64,000 nucleotides of DNA from an uncultured Gammaproteobacteria bacterium (lineage in GTDB: Bacteria; Patescibacteriota; Patescibacteriia; Magasanikbacterales; GWA2-37-8). Position numbers and translations under genes: made by a program. This document shows, piece after piece, positions 3,981 through 56,752 of this stretch (within the stretch, counting starts at the first letter, position 1; each line of letters starts with the position of its first letter). The stretch is from positions 101,600-165,599 of the forward strand of contig CAZWKA010000001.1 of assembly GCA_964634875.1 (NCBI GenBank). Direction: 5' to 3'. The notes below the pieces were generated by a model. The model did no database searches, was not told where the DNA came from, and was given only the letters and a program-made list of their open reading frames with translations.

Positions 3981-4613
3981 ATGGAAAGTATTGCTACCTT
4001 ACTCTTTGATGTTGATGGCACACTTCTGGATACACGGGAGTTTATCCTGCAAGCTACGGAGCATTGTTTGTCAGTGCACGGGTTTGCAGTTCCGGATCGT
4101 TCAGTGATCGCGCCTTTGGTCGGCAAGCCGTTCAACGAATATTATGGCACGCTTACCGGTCTCGAAGATACCCTCGTGCTGCAGAACGAGCACCGAAATT
4201 TTCAGCTGGCTAATATGCACCTGTCGGTTCCATTTCCAAAAACACTCAGTACCCTACAAACACTTCAGGAACGCGGTTATAAAATGGCAGTAGTTACGAC
4301 TCGTTCCAAAAAGACCTCGCTGCAGACTTTGGAGCAAGCTGGGTTGGCATCATTTTTTACTGTTGTTATTTCGGCCGAAGATGCTCCTGAGCTGAAGCCA
4401 CATCCCGCCCCACTGTTAAGAGCTCTGGAATTGATGAATGAATCCACAGATTCAGCCACCATGATCGGCGACAGCCATCTAGATATTGAGGCAGGAAAAA
4501 ACGCTGGTATCAAAACCGTTCGCGCGACGTATGGATTTCACGCCGATCATCTCCATGAGCCGGAACCAAATTTTTTTATTGAGGATATTGGTGATTTGTT
4601 AAAACTATTTTAG
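3981..4613 (+). CDS. HAD-superfamily hydrolase (phosphoglycolate phosphatase-like)
   Basis: 210 aa. HAD motif I FDVDGTLLDT, motif II VVTTRS, and a C-terminal GDSxxDxxAGxNAG motif. Confidence 0.75.
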   Translation: MESIATLLFDVDGTLLDTREFILQATEHCLSVHGFAVPDRSVIAPLVGKPFNEYYGTLTGLEDTLVLQNEHRNFQLANMHLSVPFPKTLSTLQTLQERGYKMAVVTTRSKKTSLQTLEQAGLASFFTVVISAEDAPELKPHPAPLLRALELMNESTDSATMIGDSHLDIEAGKNAGIKTVRATYGFHADHLHEPEPNFFIEDIGDLLKLF

Positions 4614-4685: not shown

Positions 4686-4822
4686 TTGACAAACATTTTT
4701 AATCATAGTAATCTCAGTATATGAAAAACTCACGCGCCAACAATTCGAATAATAATATCCTGCTCCGCTAGGGTGAGTTTCTTGTTACCAAAAACAAACT
4801 CTCCCGACGCGGAGAGTTTTTT
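4686..4822 (+). promoter_or_regulatory. candidate attenuator: sigma70-like promoter, 16-codon Asn-rich leader ORF (4721-4771), then alternative antiterminator/terminator hairpins
   Basis: TTGACA (4686-4691), 17-nt spacer, TAATCT (4709-4714). ORF ATG AAA AAC TCA CGC GCC AAC AAT TCG AAT AAT AAT ATC CTG CTC CGC TAG encodes MKNSRANNSNNNILLR (6 of 16 codons are Asn). Segment 1 AAACTCAC (4726-4733) is complementary to segment 2 GTGAGTTT (4773-4780). GAGTTT (4775-4780) is complementary to AAACTC (4796-4801). The terminator stem AAACTCTCC/GGAGAGTTT (4796-4819) is followed by a T-run. Confidence 0.4.
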
Positions 4823-4875
4823 AGTTAGCGACGAGGCGAGGGACGAGTCCGTCTGGCTGACTATCCCGACATGGT

Positions 4876-4947
4876 CGTGGGTAATTCCTCTGTAGTTCAA
4901 TGGTAGAACACTCCGCTGTTAACGGAGGGGTTCCTGGTTCGAGTCCA
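4876..4947 (+). tRNA. tRNA-Asn (anticodon GTT)
   Basis: Cloverleaf: acceptor TCCTCTG/CGGAGGA, D-arm GTTC-AATGGTA-GAAC, anticodon stem CTCCG/CGGAG with loop CTGTTAA (GTT), T-arm CCTGG-TTCGAGT-CCAGG, discriminator G. No encoded CCA. Confidence 0.85.
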
Positions 4948-5033
4948 GGCGGAGGAGCTTGTAGTTTTTATCTTTTAGTTAAGCCGTTAAAATGTGATAG
5001 GGTAATTTGGGTATAAATCTATAAAATAAACCT

Positions 5034-5468
5034 ATGAAAGAAATGCAATTCCTGATTGAGATACATGCCGCCAAAGAAAAGGTCTGGGATACGCTGTGGC
5101 AAGACGAAACCTTTCGGCAATGGGCAAGCATTATTGACCCGGGAACATACATGGTTGGCGATCTAAAAGAAGGCAATGAGGTGCAGTTTATCTCTGCTGT
5201 AAATGGGTATGGCGTAACAAGCTTGGTTCAAAAGTTGACGCCCGGTGAATTTTTACGGCTACAACACCGGAGCGATACTAAGGAAGACGGAAAGCAGGAA
5301 CGAAAAAAAGAATGGACGGGCGGCGAGGAAAGCTACTGGCTCAAAGAGCAAGACGGCTCAACAACACTAACTGTTGCATTCAATGTTCCACCAGAATTGG
5401 AAGAATATTTTCAAGCCAATTACCCGAAAGCTTTGGAGCGTGTAAAATTTTTAGCGGAGACAAAATAA
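5034..5468 (+). CDS. SRPBCC-fold (AHSA1/START-like) domain protein
   Basis: 144 aa. Composition and length fit the SRPBCC ligand-binding fold (IEIHAAKEKVWDTLWQDETFRQW...). No catalytic motif. Confidence 0.45.
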   Translation: MKEMQFLIEIHAAKEKVWDTLWQDETFRQWASIIDPGTYMVGDLKEGNEVQFISAVNGYGVTSLVQKLTPGEFLRLQHRSDTKEDGKQERKKEWTGGEESYWLKEQDGSTTLTVAFNVPPELEEYFQANYPKALERVKFLAETK

Positions 5469-6545: not shown

Positions 6546-7310
6546 CTAGACCGCCTTAGTGAGTATGTACCCTTCGTCGTCGACCGTGACGCCGAGGGTG
6601 GCGGTTGTGTGGGTGGGCGGAGGGTCACCATTGGCAAGTCTGCCGTGGTAGCGTTGCCATTGTTCATAAAGTCGATCGGCCCAGCGCCAGAGCGTACTGA
6701 CTTCCCAGTTGTAGTTCTCGTTGCGCCGGTGATGGTCCAGATGCGGGGTGGTCACCCGAGTGACATAGCGCGCCCAGAGCGTGCCAGCTTCTGGTTTGTA
6801 GGAGCTGCAGTGCGCCAGGTAGTGCATCTCCTCTTCCCAGAGAACCCGGAGAAAGACGAAGCTGCAAATATCAGCTACAGCGACCAAGGGGAAGGCAGTG
6901 AGGGTGCCAAGGAGTGTGCCGAGCCCCGAGAGCCCGAAGACAGTGAGAAGCGCGGCAGCGAGGGGAATAAAAATCCACTCCACGCGGGCTTGCTTGCGGT
7001 GGTGAAGCCGGTGATGGCGGGCTGAGCTCGTGTCCGGCACGTTGATAACAAGGCTCCAGAGAGCAATCTTCCGGGGAAGATGATGAAGCCCGTATATGTG
7101 GGCCACCAACTCTGTCGGTGAAACGAGAGCGATGAGGGCTGCGAAGAGGGGCGCTTCCCACCACTGCAAGGATCCGAGAAGTGATCGCACGCCAATCCAA
7201 CAGAGTGCGCCCGCGAGGAGGAGGGCAGAGGTGAAGCGCAAGAACACGACGCCTTGCACCTGCAGAAAGGTCTGGGGTTTCGGGTTTTGCCGAAGCATTT
7301 TTTTCAGCAT
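6546..7310 (-). CDS. fatty acid hydroxylase / sterol desaturase-family integral membrane protein (His-box enzyme) in a GC-rich segment
   Basis: 254 aa with multiple transmembrane helices. Histidine boxes HIYGLHH, HHRLHH(R) and HLDHHRRNENYNWEV are typical of the FA_hydroxylase superfamily. Local GC is clearly higher than the flanking DNA. Confidence 0.6.
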   Translation of the reverse strand: MLKKMLRQNPKPQTFLQVQGVVFLRFTSALLLAGALCWIGVRSLLGSLQWWEAPLFAALIALVSPTELVAHIYGLHHLPRKIALWSLVINVPDTSSARHHRLHHRKQARVEWIFIPLAAALLTVFGLSGLGTLLGTLTAFPLVAVADICSFVFLRVLWEEEMHYLAHCSSYKPEAGTLWARYVTRVTTPHLDHHRRNENYNWEVSTLWRWADRLYEQWQRYHGRLANGDPPPTHTTATLGVTVDDEGYILTKAV

Positions 7311-13542: not shown

Positions 13543-14763
13543 TTATTCCCAGCTCTTTTTAAATTCGAGAAAACAATCGTTTTTAATTGCTGCCCGGGTC
13601 TGTTCCATGAGCTTGAGGAGGAAGCTCAGGTTGTGGATGCTCGCCAAGCGCAGTGCTGTCAGTTCGTCGGCGTCAAAGAGGTGGTGCAGGTAACTGCGCG
13701 TATAGTTTTGGCAGGTCGAACAGGCGCAATCCTGATCAATTGGTTTTGTGTCTGTTTTGAATGAACCATTTTTAATATTCAATCGATGTTTTTTGCTGCT
13801 GTCTTTGGTGTAGAGCATGCCGTGGCGGGCGAGGCGGGTGGGGGCTACGCAGTCAAACATGTCCACACCGTGTTCAACCGCAACGAGCAGGTCAAAAGGC
13901 GAAAGGCCGACTCCCATCGCATAATGCGGCTTATCTTCGGGGATAAGCGGGAAAACCCAGTCCAAAATTTTGGCCGTTGCTTCCATATTGTAGCCAATTG
14001 ATTCGCCGCCAATAGCAATGCCATCAAATGGGAGGCTGGCAATAAATCTGGCTGATTCCTCGCGCAGACCCTGGTGAAGCGCGCCTTGGATAATCCCGAA
14101 CAAAAATTGGCGGTAGCCGTGGTGACGGGTATTTTTCTGATGTTCATCAATACAGCGTTTGGCCCAAGCATGGGTGCGAGCAAGTGCGGTCTGCGCATAT
14201 TTTTCGTCGGCATCATCCGGCGTACATTCGTCAAACGCCATGATGATATCTGCCCCAATTTTATGCTGGGTAACAATTGCGCTTTCGGGTGTAAAACGGT
14301 GTTTAGAGCCGTCGATGTGCGACGTAAAAGTTACGCCGTCGTCATCGATTGAGACCAGCTTGCCCTGACTTTCGGTTTTAGATTGCTCTGGGGTTGATTT
14401 ATTTTCCCCTGAAGTAAAGGTGCCCTGGCCAGCTTTTTTTTCTTTTTGTAATCCAAGACTAAACACCTGGAATCCGCCGCTGTCGGTGAGGATGGGTTTA
14501 TCCCAGTGCATGAATTTGTGGAGGCCACCTTGAGTATCGAGCAGATCTTCGCCAGGTCGAAGGTGAAGGTGGTAGGTGTTGCCGAGGATGATTTGGGCGT
14601 CAATGTTTTTTAAATCGGTTTGGTCAAGCGTTTTGACGGTCCCCTGGGTTCCAACCGGCATAAAAATCGGCGTTTCAATGTCGCCGTGGTCAGTATGCAT
14701 GATACCGGTTCGTGCCTTCGTGGCGTTGTCTTTGTGGATAATTTCGAAAAATGGTTTTTCCAT
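13543..14763 (-). CDS. tgt: queuine tRNA-ribosyltransferase
   Basis: 406 aa. PVGTQGTVK, ILGNTYHLHLRPG, catalytic Asp region DECTP, and a C-terminal zinc site (CACSTCQ ... H). Confidence 0.92.
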   Translation of the reverse strand: MEKPFFEIIHKDNATKARTGIMHTDHGDIETPIFMPVGTQGTVKTLDQTDLKNIDAQIILGNTYHLHLRPGEDLLDTQGGLHKFMHWDKPILTDSGGFQVFSLGLQKEKKAGQGTFTSGENKSTPEQSKTESQGKLVSIDDDGVTFTSHIDGSKHRFTPESAIVTQHKIGADIIMAFDECTPDDADEKYAQTALARTHAWAKRCIDEHQKNTRHHGYRQFLFGIIQGALHQGLREESARFIASLPFDGIAIGGESIGYNMEATAKILDWVFPLIPEDKPHYAMGVGLSPFDLLVAVEHGVDMFDCVAPTRLARHGMLYTKDSSKKHRLNIKNGSFKTDTKPIDQDCACSTCQNYTRSYLHHLFDADELTALRLASIHNLSFLLKLMEQTRAAIKNDCFLEFKKSWE

Positions 14764-45271: not shown

Positions 45272-45308
45272 AAGTACTTAGTACTTAGTACTTAGTACTT
45301 GGTACTTA
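45272..45308. repeat. tandem heptamer array (AGTACTT)x5, each unit containing the palindromic hexamer AGTACT
   Basis: AGTACTTAGTACTTAGTACTTAGTACTTGGTACTTAC, about 25 nt upstream of asnS. Confidence 0.7.
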
Positions 45309-45332: not shown

Positions 45333-46631
45333 ATGTCCTCAATCTGCCTTTCCAAAAATCTCCACGAACACATCGGTGAAGAAGTCGTTATTCGCGGTTG
45401 GCTTTATAATAAACGTTCCAGCGGTTCGATCGCTTTTTTGGAAGTCCGTGATGGTTTTGGTTGGGTGTCGGCCGTCGCTTCTAAAAGCGCAGTGCCCGAG
45501 AGTGTCTGGGACGCTATTGAAAAACTGACCCAGGAATCCTCGCTCACGCTGAAGGGTTTGGTTAAAGTGCACCCGAAGCGTGCTAATGAGTATGAGGTTG
45601 AGGTGCGAGATGTTGAGATCATCCAGCTCGCTACCGAATATCCAATTGCCAAGAAAGAACATGGCCCGGATTTTTTGATGGAGAACCGCCACTTGTGGCT
45701 CCGGAGTAAACAACAGTGGGCAATTTTGCGTGTGCGCGACGCCATTATTATGGCCATCAACGAATATCTACATCAGGAAAATTTTATCAAAGCCGATAGC
45801 CCGATTTTTACACCCAATGCCTGCGAAGGGACGACGACTCTTTTTGCTGTACCGTATTTTGATTTAGGCACGGCCTATTTATCCCAATCTGGGCAGTTGT
45901 ATATCGAAGCAGCGATTGCCTCGGTGGGGCGCTGTTATGATTTTGGTCCAGTTTTTCGAGCGGAAAAAAGTAAAACCAAACGTCATCTCACTGAATTTTG
46001 GATGATGGATGCCGAAGGTGCCTTTGTTGAACATGAAGAAAATTTGCAAATTCAAGAAGGATTGGTGCGCCATATCGTGCGTTATTGTTTGGAACACTGT
46101 AAACAAGAGTTGGCTATTTTGGAACGCGACACTGCCAAGCTCGCACAGGCTGACGCACCGTTCACGCGCTACACGTATGACCAGGCGATTGTAAAATTAA
46201 ACGAACTTGGGTCTGATATTAAATATGGTGAAGACTTGGGCAACGATGATGAGGGGCTTTTGACCAAAGACAGTGTGGTGCCGGTCTTTATCGAAAAATG
46301 GCCCAAGGGTATTAAGCCGTTTTATATGAAACGCGACCCGAGTAACCCCGAACTAGTCCTGAATGATGACCTGATTGCGACCGATGGTGGGGGAGAGTTG
46401 ATTGGGGGGTCACAGCGTGAAGAAGATGTTGACGTGCTCATTGAACGTATTAAGCACGAAGGGCTCAACATGGAAGATTATGAATGGTACCTCGACCTGC
46501 GTCGCTATGGCAGCGTCCCACATTCTGGCTTTGGCATCGGCCTCGAGCGGGCGGTGCGCTGGATTACGGGTGTCGAGCATATTCGGGAGTGTATTCCGTT
46601 CCCACGGACGATTGGCCGTTTAAAACCATAA
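45333..46631 (+). CDS. asnS: asparaginyl-tRNA synthetase (class IIb)
   Basis: 432 aa. N-terminal OB anticodon-binding domain. Class II motifs FRAE and GGSQRE. C-terminal GLERAVRW and FPRTIGRLKP. The length fits AsnRS rather than AspRS. Confidence 0.85.
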   Translation: MSSICLSKNLHEHIGEEVVIRGWLYNKRSSGSIAFLEVRDGFGWVSAVASKSAVPESVWDAIEKLTQESSLTLKGLVKVHPKRANEYEVEVRDVEIIQLATEYPIAKKEHGPDFLMENRHLWLRSKQQWAILRVRDAIIMAINEYLHQENFIKADSPIFTPNACEGTTTLFAVPYFDLGTAYLSQSGQLYIEAAIASVGRCYDFGPVFRAEKSKTKRHLTEFWMMDAEGAFVEHEENLQIQEGLVRHIVRYCLEHCKQELAILERDTAKLAQADAPFTRYTYDQAIVKLNELGSDIKYGEDLGNDDEGLLTKDSVVPVFIEKWPKGIKPFYMKRDPSNPELVLNDDLIATDGGGELIGGSQREEDVDVLIERIKHEGLNMEDYEWYLDLRRYGSVPHSGFGIGLERAVRWITGVEHIRECIPFPRTIGRLKP

Positions 46632-53215: not shown

Positions 53216-53240
53216 ACCCTTTGTTCGATTCTTATTTTAG

Positions 53241-53324
53241 TGCCCAGAGAGAGAATCGAACTCTCATGATGTCGCCATCGCGGGATTTTGAGTCCCGTGC
53301 GTCTACCAGTTCCGCCATCTGGGC
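53241..53324 (-). tRNA. tRNA-Leu (anticodon CAA), type II with long variable arm
   Basis: The reverse complement folds as acceptor GCCCAGA/TCTGGGC, D-arm GCGG-AACTGGTAG-ACGC, anticodon stem CGGGA/TCCCG with loop CTCAAAA, a 14-nt variable arm, T-arm GAGAG-TTCGATT-CTCTC, and discriminator A. Confidence 0.85.
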
Positions 53325-53488
53325 CTGAAAAATGCAAAGCGTAAAGTGAAAAGTGTAAAATACACATGTCGCAAAGCGACTCCTTTATTTTTAACTTTTC
53401 GTTTTTAGTTTTGCGCTTTAATAATAGTCCAATATTGTTTTTCTGTCAACGGTTATGCTATACTATGAATACTTTTATTATCCGTGGT

Positions 53489-55246: not shown

Positions 55247-56752
55247 TTATTTTTTATCTTTACTTTTTGGCAAAATAAATTTAAGCCAATTGCTGAGTGA
55301 AGTATTTTTAAGTCCGCTCTTGATTTGTCCCTTTGCCAGGTGTGTCTTCACCGACTTCAGCCAGTCCGGGGAAGGTCCTTTACGGTTTTTATCTGTGATA
55401 ATTTCGACGACGTCGCCACTTTTGAGGCAGTCGCTCAGTGAGACTAACTGATCGTTGACGCGTGCGCCGCTGCACTTATTGCCGATCTCACTATGAATAT
55501 GGTAGGCAAAATCAACGGGTGTGGCATTCTCGGGCAGGTCAATGACGTCACCCTGAGGTGTAAAGACAAAAATATGATTTTGAAAAAAATCCACCTTAAG
55601 CTCTTCGAGGTCAGATTCTTTAACTAAAATTTCTTTTTGAATGCGTGCCAGTTCCTTGGCCCACGCAATATCTTTTTGTGGCAGCCGGGCACCTTGTTCA
55701 TCGTACAGCCAATGCGCGGCCACACCAAATTCTGCTTCGTCGTGCATGGCTCTTGTACGGATCTGGAATTCCACGATTTTTCCGCCCTCGCAAAACACCG
55801 TCGTATGGAGCGACTTATAGCCGTTGGGTTTCGGCTGGGCAATATAATCTTTGATGCGACCCTTGAGTGGGCGCCATAGTTTGTGGATGATGCCAAGTGT
55901 GGCATAGCAGTCGCCAACGTTGCCGACAATAATCCGAAGTGCCACGATGTCGTAAATTTTATCAGTCTGCCAATCCTTTTTCAGTAGTTTTTGGTAGAGG
56001 CTATATAATTGTTTTTTACGCCCATGCGTCTCGAGCAACTTCACATCAGCCTTCAGAAGTTCTGTCCTGATCTGAGCCATTACTTTTTCGACATAGGGTT
56101 CTTCATCACTAAAAACACGGTCGCGCAGGGCAACGGTGCGTTCGTATTCTTTGGGGTAGACATACCGGAACGACAAATCTTCGAGCATCCCTTTGAATTC
56201 ACCCATACCCAGGCGGTGGGCGATTGGGGCGTAAATTTCCAGACTTTCAAGCGCAATACGATAACGCTTTTTTTCGGGCAGTGAATCGAGGGTGGACAGG
56301 TTGTGTACGCGGTCGGCGAATTTGATGATCATGACCCGCACGTCTTCGGCCATGGCCACGAACATTTTGCGCAGGTTCTCGATGTAGCGTTCCACGCCGC
56401 GGTACTTCAGTTTACCCAATTTAGTGATCCCTTCGATCATTTTGGCAATATCCGCGCCAAAGTTTTTTTCAATTTCAGCCAAGGTTACCGGGGTATCTTC
56501 GGGTACGTCGTGGAGCAAAGTTGCCAAAATAATACTTGGATCCATCCGCATTTTTGACAAGATATACGCTGCCGAAAGCGGGTGGATAATGTAGGGTTCC
56601 CCGGTTTTTCGGAATTGTCCTTCGTGTGCCTTGGCCGCAAAATCATACACTAAACGCACCAAAACAGAATCTGTTGTCGGGTGGTAGGATTTAATTTCCC
56701 GGATGAGGTGGTCAACCGTAAGGTCTGGGGGAATAATGATTTTATGGCTCAT
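55247..56752 (-). CDS. rel: bifunctional (p)ppGpp synthetase/hydrolase Rel/SpoT homolog (HD + synthetase + TGS; no C-terminal ACT/RRM)
   Basis: 501 aa. HD hydrolase motif (HDVPEDT), synthetase domain (DIVALRIIV ... GYKSLHTTV), and TGS (IFVFTPQGDVIDLPENATPVDFAYHIHSEIG). Confidence 0.88.
   Translation of the reverse strand: MSHKIIIPPDLTVDHLIREIKSYHPTTDSVLVRLVYDFAAKAHEGQFRKTGEPYIIHPLSAAYILSKMRMDPSIILATLLHDVPEDTPVTLAEIEKNFGADIAKMIEGITKLGKLKYRGVERYIENLRKMFVAMAEDVRVMIIKFADRVHNLSTLDSLPEKKRYRIALESLEIYAPIAHRLGMGEFKGMLEDLSFRYVYPKEYERTVALRDRVFSDEEPYVEKVMAQIRTELLKADVKLLETHGRKKQLYSLYQKLLKKDWQTDKIYDIVALRIIVGNVGDCYATLGIIHKLWRPLKGRIKDYIAQPKPNGYKSLHTTVFCEGGKIVEFQIRTRAMHDEAEFGVAAHWLYDEQGARLPQKDIAWAKELARIQKEILVKESDLEELKVDFFQNHIFVFTPQGDVIDLPENATPVDFAYHIHSEIGNKCSGARVNDQLVSLSDCLKSGDVVEIITDKNRKGPSPDWLKSVKTHLAKGQIKSGLKNTSLSNWLKFILPKSKDKK

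Follow-up and report, generated by a model that had tools for sequence, protein, structure and literature searches.

The subject of this analysis is a short transcription unit that lies directly upstream of a gene for asparagine transfer RNA (tRNA-Asn, anticodon GTT) on contig CAZWKA010000001.1 of assembly GCA_964634875.1. The unit was studied within a 64-kb stretch of that contig, here called the window. All positions are coordinates of the window, and all of the evidence is computational. The unit consists, in order, of a promoter, a 16-codon open reading frame (ORF) in which 6 of the 16 codons specify asparagine (Asn), a region that can fold either as an antiterminator or as a terminator, and the tRNA-Asn gene (Table 1). 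Its neighbors are a gene for a HAD-family hydrolase at 3981-4613 and one for a small AHSA1-like protein at 5034-5468. The closest homologs of the hydrolase come from assemblies of Patescibacteria, also called the candidate phyla radiation (CPR). A public sequencing run of the same organism was assembled separately (L008), and the sequence there is identical. Thus, the unit is not an assembly artifact. An earlier reading of this DNA, made by a model from the letters and their ORFs (hereafter the sequence-only reading), had proposed a leader-peptide attenuator that responds to the decoding of Asn codons and governs the tRNA-Asn gene. The positions which that reading assigned to the promoter, the ORF, the pairing segments, and the terminator all agree with the sequence.

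Table 1. Features of the Asn leader unit and the tRNA-Asn gene in the window
Feature	Position	Strand	Details
-35 hexamer TTGACA of the putative leader promoter	4686-4691	+	Read from the sequence
-10 hexamer TAATCT	4709-4714	+	17-nucleotide (nt) spacer after the -35 hexamer; 6 nt before the ATG
Leader ORF MKNSRANNSNNNILLR	4721-4771	+	ATG 4721; TAG 4769-4771; 16 codons; no Shine-Dalgarno sequence
Putative regulatory Asn codon cluster AAC AAT TCG AAT AAT AAT	4739-4756	+	Further AAC at 4727-4729
Segment 1 AAACTCAC	4726-4733	+	Partner of segment 2
Segment 2 as first drawn, GTGAGTTT	4773-4780	+	Partner of segment 1 or segment 3
Segment 2, antiterminator 5' strand	4762-4780	+	Core GGGTGAGTTT at 4771-4780
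Segment 3, terminator 5' arm	4796-4805	+	AAACTCTCC[C]; partner is segment 2 or segment 4
Segment 4, terminator 3' arm GGAGAGTTT	4811-4822	+	Arm 4811-4819 running into T6 tract
Spacer from terminator to tRNA, 63 nt	4823-4885	+	Two predicted hairpins, 4824-4861 and 4862-4883
tRNA-Asn (anticodon GTT), proposed regulated gene	4886-4958	+	ARAGORN; Rfam tRNA model, 67.7 bits

The six Asn codons of the leader ORF are AAC at 4727 and 4739 and AAT at 4742, 4748, 4751, and 4754. No second ORF of this kind exists in the window: when both strands (128 kb) were scanned for ATG-initiated ORFs of 6-40 amino acids containing at least four Asn in eight residues, the leader was the only one returned. The core of segment 2, GGGTGAGTTT, overlaps the stop codon by that codon's last base and would be covered by a ribosome positioned at the stop. 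The core pairs with AAACTCTCCC (4796-4805), and the codons GCTCCGC upstream of the core provide extra pairing to the terminator 3' arm. The sequence-only reading had drawn the 2:3 pairing as GAGTTT with AAACTC. That pairing is present; it is also longer than drawn, joining 4762-4780 with 4796-4814. Because the extended antiterminator reaches 4814, it sequesters both arms of the terminator. The terminator itself (4796-4822) is built from AAACTCTCC (4796-4804), the loop CGACGC, and GGAGAGTTT (4811-4819), with a T-run to 4822. A terminator scan of the window describes it as nine pairs, four of them G-C, with a 6-nt loop and a T tail.

The main evidence comes from comparison with other genomes. 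Loci were located in species-representative genomes with a neutral search pattern based on the tRNA-Asn D arm and anticodon loop, which yielded 74 loci, and the sequence upstream was inspected after this tRNA-centered scan. The leader layout is present at 32 other loci in Patescibacteria genomes and on approximately eight metagenome contigs; those 32 relatives together with the window make up the 33 leader-bearing loci referred to below. Each of the 32 other genome loci combines a near-consensus promoter, a short ATG-initiated ORF with an Asn run, and a hairpin with a T-run. Leader peptides of relatives include MKNCRNNNNLNNTRA, MKQIIRSNNNNNNIPRGL, MTYQKFATFNNNNNNRLL, and MKYIFVNNNNNNNRPTGG. 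The sequence-only reading had suggested looking for the same layout in related genomes as a check, and the outcome does not refute its proposal: the association is with tRNA-Asn. Specifically, ORFs with at least four Asn in eight residues within 300 nt of the tRNA lie upstream of 32 of 72 tRNA-Asn genes, 0 of 160 other tRNA genes from the same loci, and 0 of 72 reverse complements. Nor did any of the 160 other tRNA genes sampled have an upstream leader enriched in its own amino acid. In 283 kb of positive loci, including the window, 44 Asn-rich ORFs occur, of which 32 are the leaders and 12 have just four scattered Asn.

On metagenome contigs, the narrow tRNA pattern gave zero matches, and a broader pattern was used instead. 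The broader scan supplied the approximately eight further leader loci. One of them, L151, carries eight consecutive Asn codons in its leader. In L162 (33-380), a single Asn leader and attenuator precede two complete tandem tRNA-Asn genes.

Leaders occur at loci labeled Magasanikbacteria, Komeilibacteria, Falkowbacteria, Nomurabacteria, Paceibacter, and unclassified Patescibacteria. Loci from Saccharibacteria, Nealsonbacteria, and some other CPR lineages have no leader, and there an ordinary promoter lies 8-16 nt upstream of tRNA-Asn. The approximately 40 leader loci lie next to unrelated upstream genes. Downstream of the leader, the tRNA is the only feature conserved across loci; we found no conserved protein-coding gene downstream of it, and a second terminator often follows the tRNA directly. 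Thus, tRNA-Asn is the only conserved target.

Two observations concern the membership of this set. Thirteen leader loci are labeled "uncultured Gammaproteobacteria bacterium" (L012, L015, L017, L021, L022, L025, L026, L028, L036, L050, L053, L070, and L078). Their tRNA-Asn genes, promoters, and leaders match those of the Patescibacteria loci, and L022 and L070 have the leader as well as the upstream gene in common with the Magasanikbacteria loci L009 and L060, so the label is probably wrong. The second observation is from L013, where the minus strand upstream of tRNA-Asn (403-475) has a short ORF (MEKKLLTNCHNYRFNWPT) together with a promoter and a terminator similar to the one in L062. The ORF has only three scattered Asn codons, and the covariance model described below gives no match. 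L013 may hold a degenerate or repurposed leader.

The Asn run is the sole peptide feature conserved across the leaders. The peptides are 14-20 amino acids in length, with one of 24, and contain 3-8 Asn; the 33 leaders together use 141 AAT and 51 AAC codons. Regarding initiation signals, the promoter is conserved and there is no Shine-Dalgarno sequence. A -35 counterpart reading TTGACA, TTGACT, or TTGACC occupies the equivalent place in 28 of the 33 loci. The -10 boxes of the relatives are stronger than that of the window and hold the same position. In nearly all loci, the window included, 5-14 nt (mostly 6-11 nt) separate the end of the -10 box from the ATG. Given this spacing, the leader transcript would begin at the AUG or within a few nucleotides of it. 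The sequence-only reading had listed a leaderless ORF lacking a Shine-Dalgarno sequence as a caveat. The conserved spacing eases that concern: the missing Shine-Dalgarno sequence is plausibly a property of the family, with the ORF leaderless by design. The -10 spacing and the leaderless leader peptides described in PMC4007540 together make such a start plausible.

An intrinsic terminator, with hairpin and T-run, follows the ORF in 33 of 33 loci, although the T-run is weak in one. The end of the hairpin lies 5-31 nt from the tRNA in 23 loci, and the spacer is long in 10 of the 33, the window among them. No promoter-like site was found between terminator and tRNA in 32 of the 33 loci, nor within the window's own spacer. 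Thus, the tRNA would be made only through read-through of the terminator. Many relatives also have a separate terminator, belonging to the upstream gene, just before the leader promoter.

We next consider the switch itself. Each transcript was folded as far as the loop of the terminator, where the choice between the two structures has to be made. In approximately 30 of the 33 loci, as in the window, the 5' arm of the terminator pairs with a segment at or just after the stop codon, which bears out the proposal that the terminator and an upstream helix are mutually exclusive. The antiterminator pairing is kept in free RNA and when a ribosome footprint is masked on the Asn codons. When the footprint is instead masked at the stop codon, the antiterminator is wholly lost in 21 of 33 loci, meaning that no bases of the terminator 5' arm remain paired upstream, and it is weakened in most others. 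In every one of the 33 loci, the partner strand of the terminator 5' arm falls within -26 to +16 nt of the stop codon's first base; its median span is +1 to +9 nt. Typically, this strand at the stop codon resembles the terminator 3' arm in sequence, as does GGACCGG in L048 and as GGGTGAGTTT resembles GGAGAGTTT in the window.

These helices vary too much in length and register for a fair column-wise test of covariation, and an alignment made from predicted pairs would be circular. For these reasons, we used an alignment-free permutation test in which partner strands were swapped between loci 20000 times. Cognate 2:3 partners pair at a mean of -11.5 kcal/mol versus -7.3 kcal/mol for non-cognate partners, and the corresponding means for the 1:2 pairing are -9.6 and -6.9 kcal/mol. 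In neither case was any of the 20000 permutations as low as the cognate mean. The complementarity is therefore specific to each locus. Against dinucleotide shuffles, 19 of the 33 loci have a 2:3 helix significant at p < 0.05, and 7 have a 1:2 helix significant at that level. Among eight close relatives, the RNAalifold consensus is the 2:3 helix, with two compensatory pairs. The 1:2 helix of the sequence-only reading thus survives for the window and is not universal: it is confined to certain lineages, including that of the window. What is universal is the choice between 2:3 and 3:4, which would be settled by whether a ribosome gets as far as the stop codon.

In the window, the 110-nt leader folds better than all 200 of its shuffles (z = -3.05). 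The 1:2 helix has an energy of -7.4 kcal/mol alone and -9.6 kcal/mol in context, the 2:3 helix -9.8 kcal/mol alone and -12.6 kcal/mol in context, and the 3:4 helix -12.1 kcal/mol. As the transcript grows, 1:2 is the minimum-energy structure at 60-85 nt and 2:3 from 90 nt onward; at 95 nt, the extended antiterminator has reached -23.8 kcal/mol. For the full-length leader, the antiterminator state lies at -27.0 kcal/mol versus -21.7 kcal/mol for the state that combines 1:2 with 3:4.

The family can also be recognized by a model. A covariance model, R1, was built from 30 relatives with the window excluded. In the window, R1 has a single match, at 4721-4825, over the full model length (42.7 bits, E 2.5e-5); the next match has an E of 0.78. 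In 1.07 Mb of loci outside the model, 11 of the 11 matches with E < 0.1 lie directly upstream of tRNA-Asn, and R1 revealed a new locus, L138, whose leader MKQIWFNPSNNRIK has only three Asn codons. Known families do not account for the element. Rfam matched only the tRNA, both in the window and in eight related loci. Phe_leader (RF01859) scored 23.3 bits in the window against a gathering threshold of 55 bits, with the score coming from the terminator, and the other Rfam leader families had no window match at E up to 10.

We consider it likely that the unit is a transcription attenuator of the ribosome-mediated, leader-peptide type and that the gene it regulates is tRNA-Asn itself. The proposal of the sequence-only reading is supported, chiefly by the comparison of genomes. 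What the computations establish is a set of conserved parts in conserved order and spacing, with mutually exclusive pairings and complementarity that is specific to each locus. The following sequence of events would fit these parts. Transcription would start at or next to the AUG at 4721, as the geometry of the promoter suggests. A ribosome would load on the 5'-terminal AUG and translate the 16-codon leader while RNA polymerase proceeds. If charged tRNA-Asn is ample, the ribosome would pass the six Asn codons, arrive at the TAG at 4769, and cover segment 2 (4771-4780). Segment 3 would then be free for segment 4, the terminator would form, and transcription would end near 4822, in the T-run and short of the tRNA. 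When charged tRNA-Asn runs low, the ribosome would stall on the Asn cluster (4739-4756) and leave segment 2 exposed. Segment 2 could not reach segment 1 in this situation because the ribosome would sit between the two. Segment 2 would instead pair with the 5' arm of the terminator, and polymerase would read through into tRNA-Asn. The leader of the read-through transcript would presumably be removed by RNase P. The net effect would be negative feedback of charged tRNA-Asn, or of Asn decoding capacity, on the tRNA's own gene. In the window's lineage, the 1:2 helix would provide additional termination in the absence of leader translation, and it might serve as a pause site.

Several points weigh against this interpretation. 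We infer the start of transcription, the translation of the ORF, and termination, and likewise stalling on the Asn codons and the read-through outcomes. The -10 box of the window is weak: it matches TATAAT at only three of six positions, and for that reason a consensus promoter scan of the window did not call the leader promoter. Taken alone, the window's helices are marginal versus shuffles (1:2, p = 0.06; 2:3, p = 0.14), so the case rests on the comparison between loci. Free RNA at equilibrium favors the antiterminator, by the energies given above for the full-length leader. Termination thus needs segment 2 to be occupied by a ribosome or the RNA to be kinetically trapped in the 1:2 helix, and in the model it would hinge on ribosome timing and folding kinetics. 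A further point is the 63-nt spacer between terminator and tRNA, which begins with TAGTT and whose two-hairpin fold (-23.7 kcal/mol, z = -1.73) is not significant.

Finally, the physiological sense of the arrangement is not obvious. The window encodes a true asparaginyl-tRNA synthetase (AsnRS), asnS (45333-46631), which scores 516 bits against a cut-off of 414 for the NCBIfam equivalog asparagine--tRNA ligase. Charging is therefore direct, and extra tRNA would bring no relief of asparagine starvation. Indirect, GatCAB-dependent Asn synthesis was considered as a rationale and set aside, as the bona fide AsnRS makes charging direct at least here; GatCAB was not searched for. No Asn leader was found elsewhere in the window, including upstream of asnS.

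The alternative that survives best holds that the leader is an independent small gene, encoding an Asn-rich micropeptide or an approximately 105-nt terminated small RNA, and that the tRNA is transcribed by constitutive, leaky read-through. We regard this as unlikely. The unit does have its own promoter and terminator, and terminated attenuator RNAs and leader peptides can act in trans in other bacteria, as is reported for trpL in Sinorhizobium. An activity of this type would also be compatible with attenuation of tRNA-Asn. However, the peptides have nothing in common except the Asn run, and the link to tRNA-Asn is exclusive, with no such ORF before any of the 160 other tRNA genes. Moreover, the terminator of a plain gene would have no need of a conserved, locus-specific antiterminator at the stop codon, and 32 of the 33 loci contain no tRNA promoter after the terminator, which this reading leaves unexplained.

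More doubtful still is an RNA switch that operates without translation. Here, the AAY repeats would pair, in the manner of T-box specifiers, with the GUU anticodon of uncharged tRNA-Asn, or would bind a protein, and so stabilize the antiterminator. AAU and AAC triplets are indeed complementary to the tRNA-Asn anticodon, and T-box leaders are generally known to use the same terminator/antiterminator logic to respond to tRNA charging. Yet neither the T-box model nor any other Rfam model matches the window region at E up to 10, the T-box model finds nothing in eight related loci at E up to 1, and neither a Stem I-like platform nor a conserved T-box sequence is visible in the alignment of the leaders. 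In addition, the leaders carry an in-frame ATG at leaderless distance from the promoter and, in 33 of 33 loci, an in-frame stop codon at the antiterminator strand that closes a peptide of 14-24 amino acids. These elements would have no role in a T-box.

About equally improbable, in our estimation, is a general sensor of translation capacity, in which any slowing of ribosomes raises read-through and thereby ties tRNA-Asn to global translation. Any ribosome that arrives late at the stop codon would leave segment 2 free, as this idea supposes, but it leaves unexplained why the codons are constantly Asn and the target is constantly tRNA-Asn. Chance, that is, an Asn-rich ORF that happens to lie in an AT-rich intergenic region next to a hairpin that terminates the upstream HAD hydrolase gene (3981-4613), could draw on the weak and uncalled promoter, the lack of any other terminator between that gene and the hairpin, and the marginal statistics of the window's own helices, but it is extremely unlikely and is effectively refuted by the comparative data: the arrangement recurs in approximately 40 loci whose upstream genes are unrelated, in many relatives the upstream gene has a terminator of its own before the leader promoter, the covariance model matches at E 2.5e-5, and the ORF is unique in 128 kb of scanned strands.

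As an attenuator, the element would employ a known mechanism; the novelty lies in a cognate tRNA gene as the target. The classical trpL, hisL, pheL, thrL, and leuL attenuators (Rfam Trp_leader, His_leader, Phe_leader, and related families) likewise have a short ORF with a cluster of codons for one amino acid and mutually exclusive antiterminator and terminator hairpins, chosen according to whether the ribosome is stalled or at the stop. The trp attenuator also has a 1:2 helix, as does the window. In contrast to the classical attenuators, which control biosynthetic enzymes, the proposed target here is the cognate tRNA gene and the amino acid is Asn. Furthermore, the ORF here would be leaderless and is without a Shine-Dalgarno sequence, the hosts are Patescibacteria, the 1:2 helix is not universal, and there is no sequence or profile similarity.

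Leader-peptide control of synthetase genes is known from pheM-pheST of Escherichia coli. In Bacillus, a His leader upstream of hisS paralogs is described in PMC2965389. These systems resemble the present one in that attenuation at cognate codons acts on the translation machinery for that amino acid. They differ in that the target is the charging enzyme, not the tRNA. Mycobacteria possess polycysteine leaderless short ORFs similar to the leaders of Deinococcus. For Deinococcus deserti, PMC4007540 reports leaderless leader peptides before tRNA synthetase and biosynthesis genes. As is proposed for the element described here, their transcripts start at the AUG of a very short ORF rich in a single amino acid, followed by a terminator and a cognate gene; unlike it, they belong to another phylum, and no tRNA gene is reported as a target.

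As is proposed for this element, T-box riboswitches sense the state of a specific tRNA and switch between terminator and antiterminator in a 5' leader. They do so, however, by binding uncharged tRNA directly, without translation, and they regulate protein-coding genes, whereas the element here has no T-box match and has the features of a translated ORF. Bacterial tRNA genes are subject to growth-rate and stringent control at their promoters. There too, transcription of tRNA follows translational status, but the control is global and acts at initiation, in contrast to the attenuation of a single tRNA species proposed here. The sequence-only reading had supposed that leader-peptide attenuation of a tRNA gene was undescribed. 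In agreement, neither a leader peptide controlling a tRNA gene nor this element in CPR bacteria was found in the searchable full-text literature, a body of text that leaves most subscription journals outside its coverage.

Several further observations touch tRNA-Asn or the neighborhood of the unit. Among loci with a long spacer, a tRNA-Asn-like 5' half lies between the leader terminator and the functional tRNA-Asn in L017, L026, L041, L057, L080, and L111. A tRNA-Asn-like element is also found in L027, where it lies downstream of tRNA-Asn (7122-7225), and in L014, L036, L039, and L065. The 5' half runs from an acceptor-like 7-mer through TAGTT and a D loop with two short inserted hairpins to TGGTAGAA. 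In seven copies, the two hairpins covary strongly: 98.6% of cells are paired, 6 of 10 pairs are compensatory, and none of 500 shuffles scores as high. The functional tRNA is closely followed by a matching 3' half in L026, L036, L014, and probably L057. This 3' half combines a T-arm-like hairpin with a strand that is complementary to the upstream 7-mer; in L026 and L036, GCCA comes next. The inner tRNA lies between short inverted repeats, such as CGCACTAA/TTAGTGCG in L039. No Rfam family matched the tRNA-like element. It appears that a complete tRNA-Asn gene is nested inside a second tRNA-Asn-like gene that is disrupted but structurally conserved. We speculate that, in some lineages, the enclosing tRNA-like RNA could belong with the attenuator to one unit of control or processing. 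The window's spacer was evaluated as a copy of the two-hairpin element and rejected: it did not align, and its fold, as noted, lacks significance.

Other observations come from the window at large. Synteny via the upstream HAD hydrolase proved unproductive, as its closest homologs are at most 66% identical and lie in unrelated neighborhoods without tRNA-Asn. Immediately upstream of asnS (45273-45307) are five tandem AGTACTT heptamers, the last of which reads GGTACTT. The gene for tRNA-Leu(CAA) (53240-53324, minus strand) has a strong promoter-like sequence, TTGACA-17-TATTAT, approximately 95 nt upstream. Its long 5' leader (53325-53450, minus strand) contains a small hairpin, GTCGC-TTT-GCGAC; neither a Leu-rich ORF nor a terminator was found in that leader. 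Finally, the window encodes a queuine tRNA-ribosyltransferase (TGT; 13543-14763, minus strand) and a RelA/SpoT-family protein (55247-56752, minus strand). TGT modifies tRNAs with GUN anticodons, including tRNA-Asn. The two proteins could bear on the sensing of Asn decoding and of uncharged tRNA.

To our knowledge, the known targets of leader-peptide attenuation are all enzymes, either of biosynthesis or of aminoacylation. Likewise, the only control of bacterial tRNA genes of which we are aware is global and acts at their promoters, and we know of no earlier case of tRNA-specific feedback on the transcription of a tRNA gene. Against this background, we lean toward the view that the tRNA-Asn gene is autoregulated by its own decoding. 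Specifically, a leaderless poly-Asn mini-ORF would report how much usable tRNA-Asn is present, forming a homeostat for a single tRNA that is widespread in Patescibacteria. If so, this arrangement would be the shortest possible loop between decoding capacity and tRNA supply. The levels of individual tRNAs would then be set by feedback, and this in very small genomes with few regulators. The unit, at approximately 140 nt, is compact and could be reused as a sensor of Asn-tRNA status. Finally, the arrangement implies that transcription and translation are coupled, and that leaderless mRNAs are translated, in uncultivated CPR bacteria.

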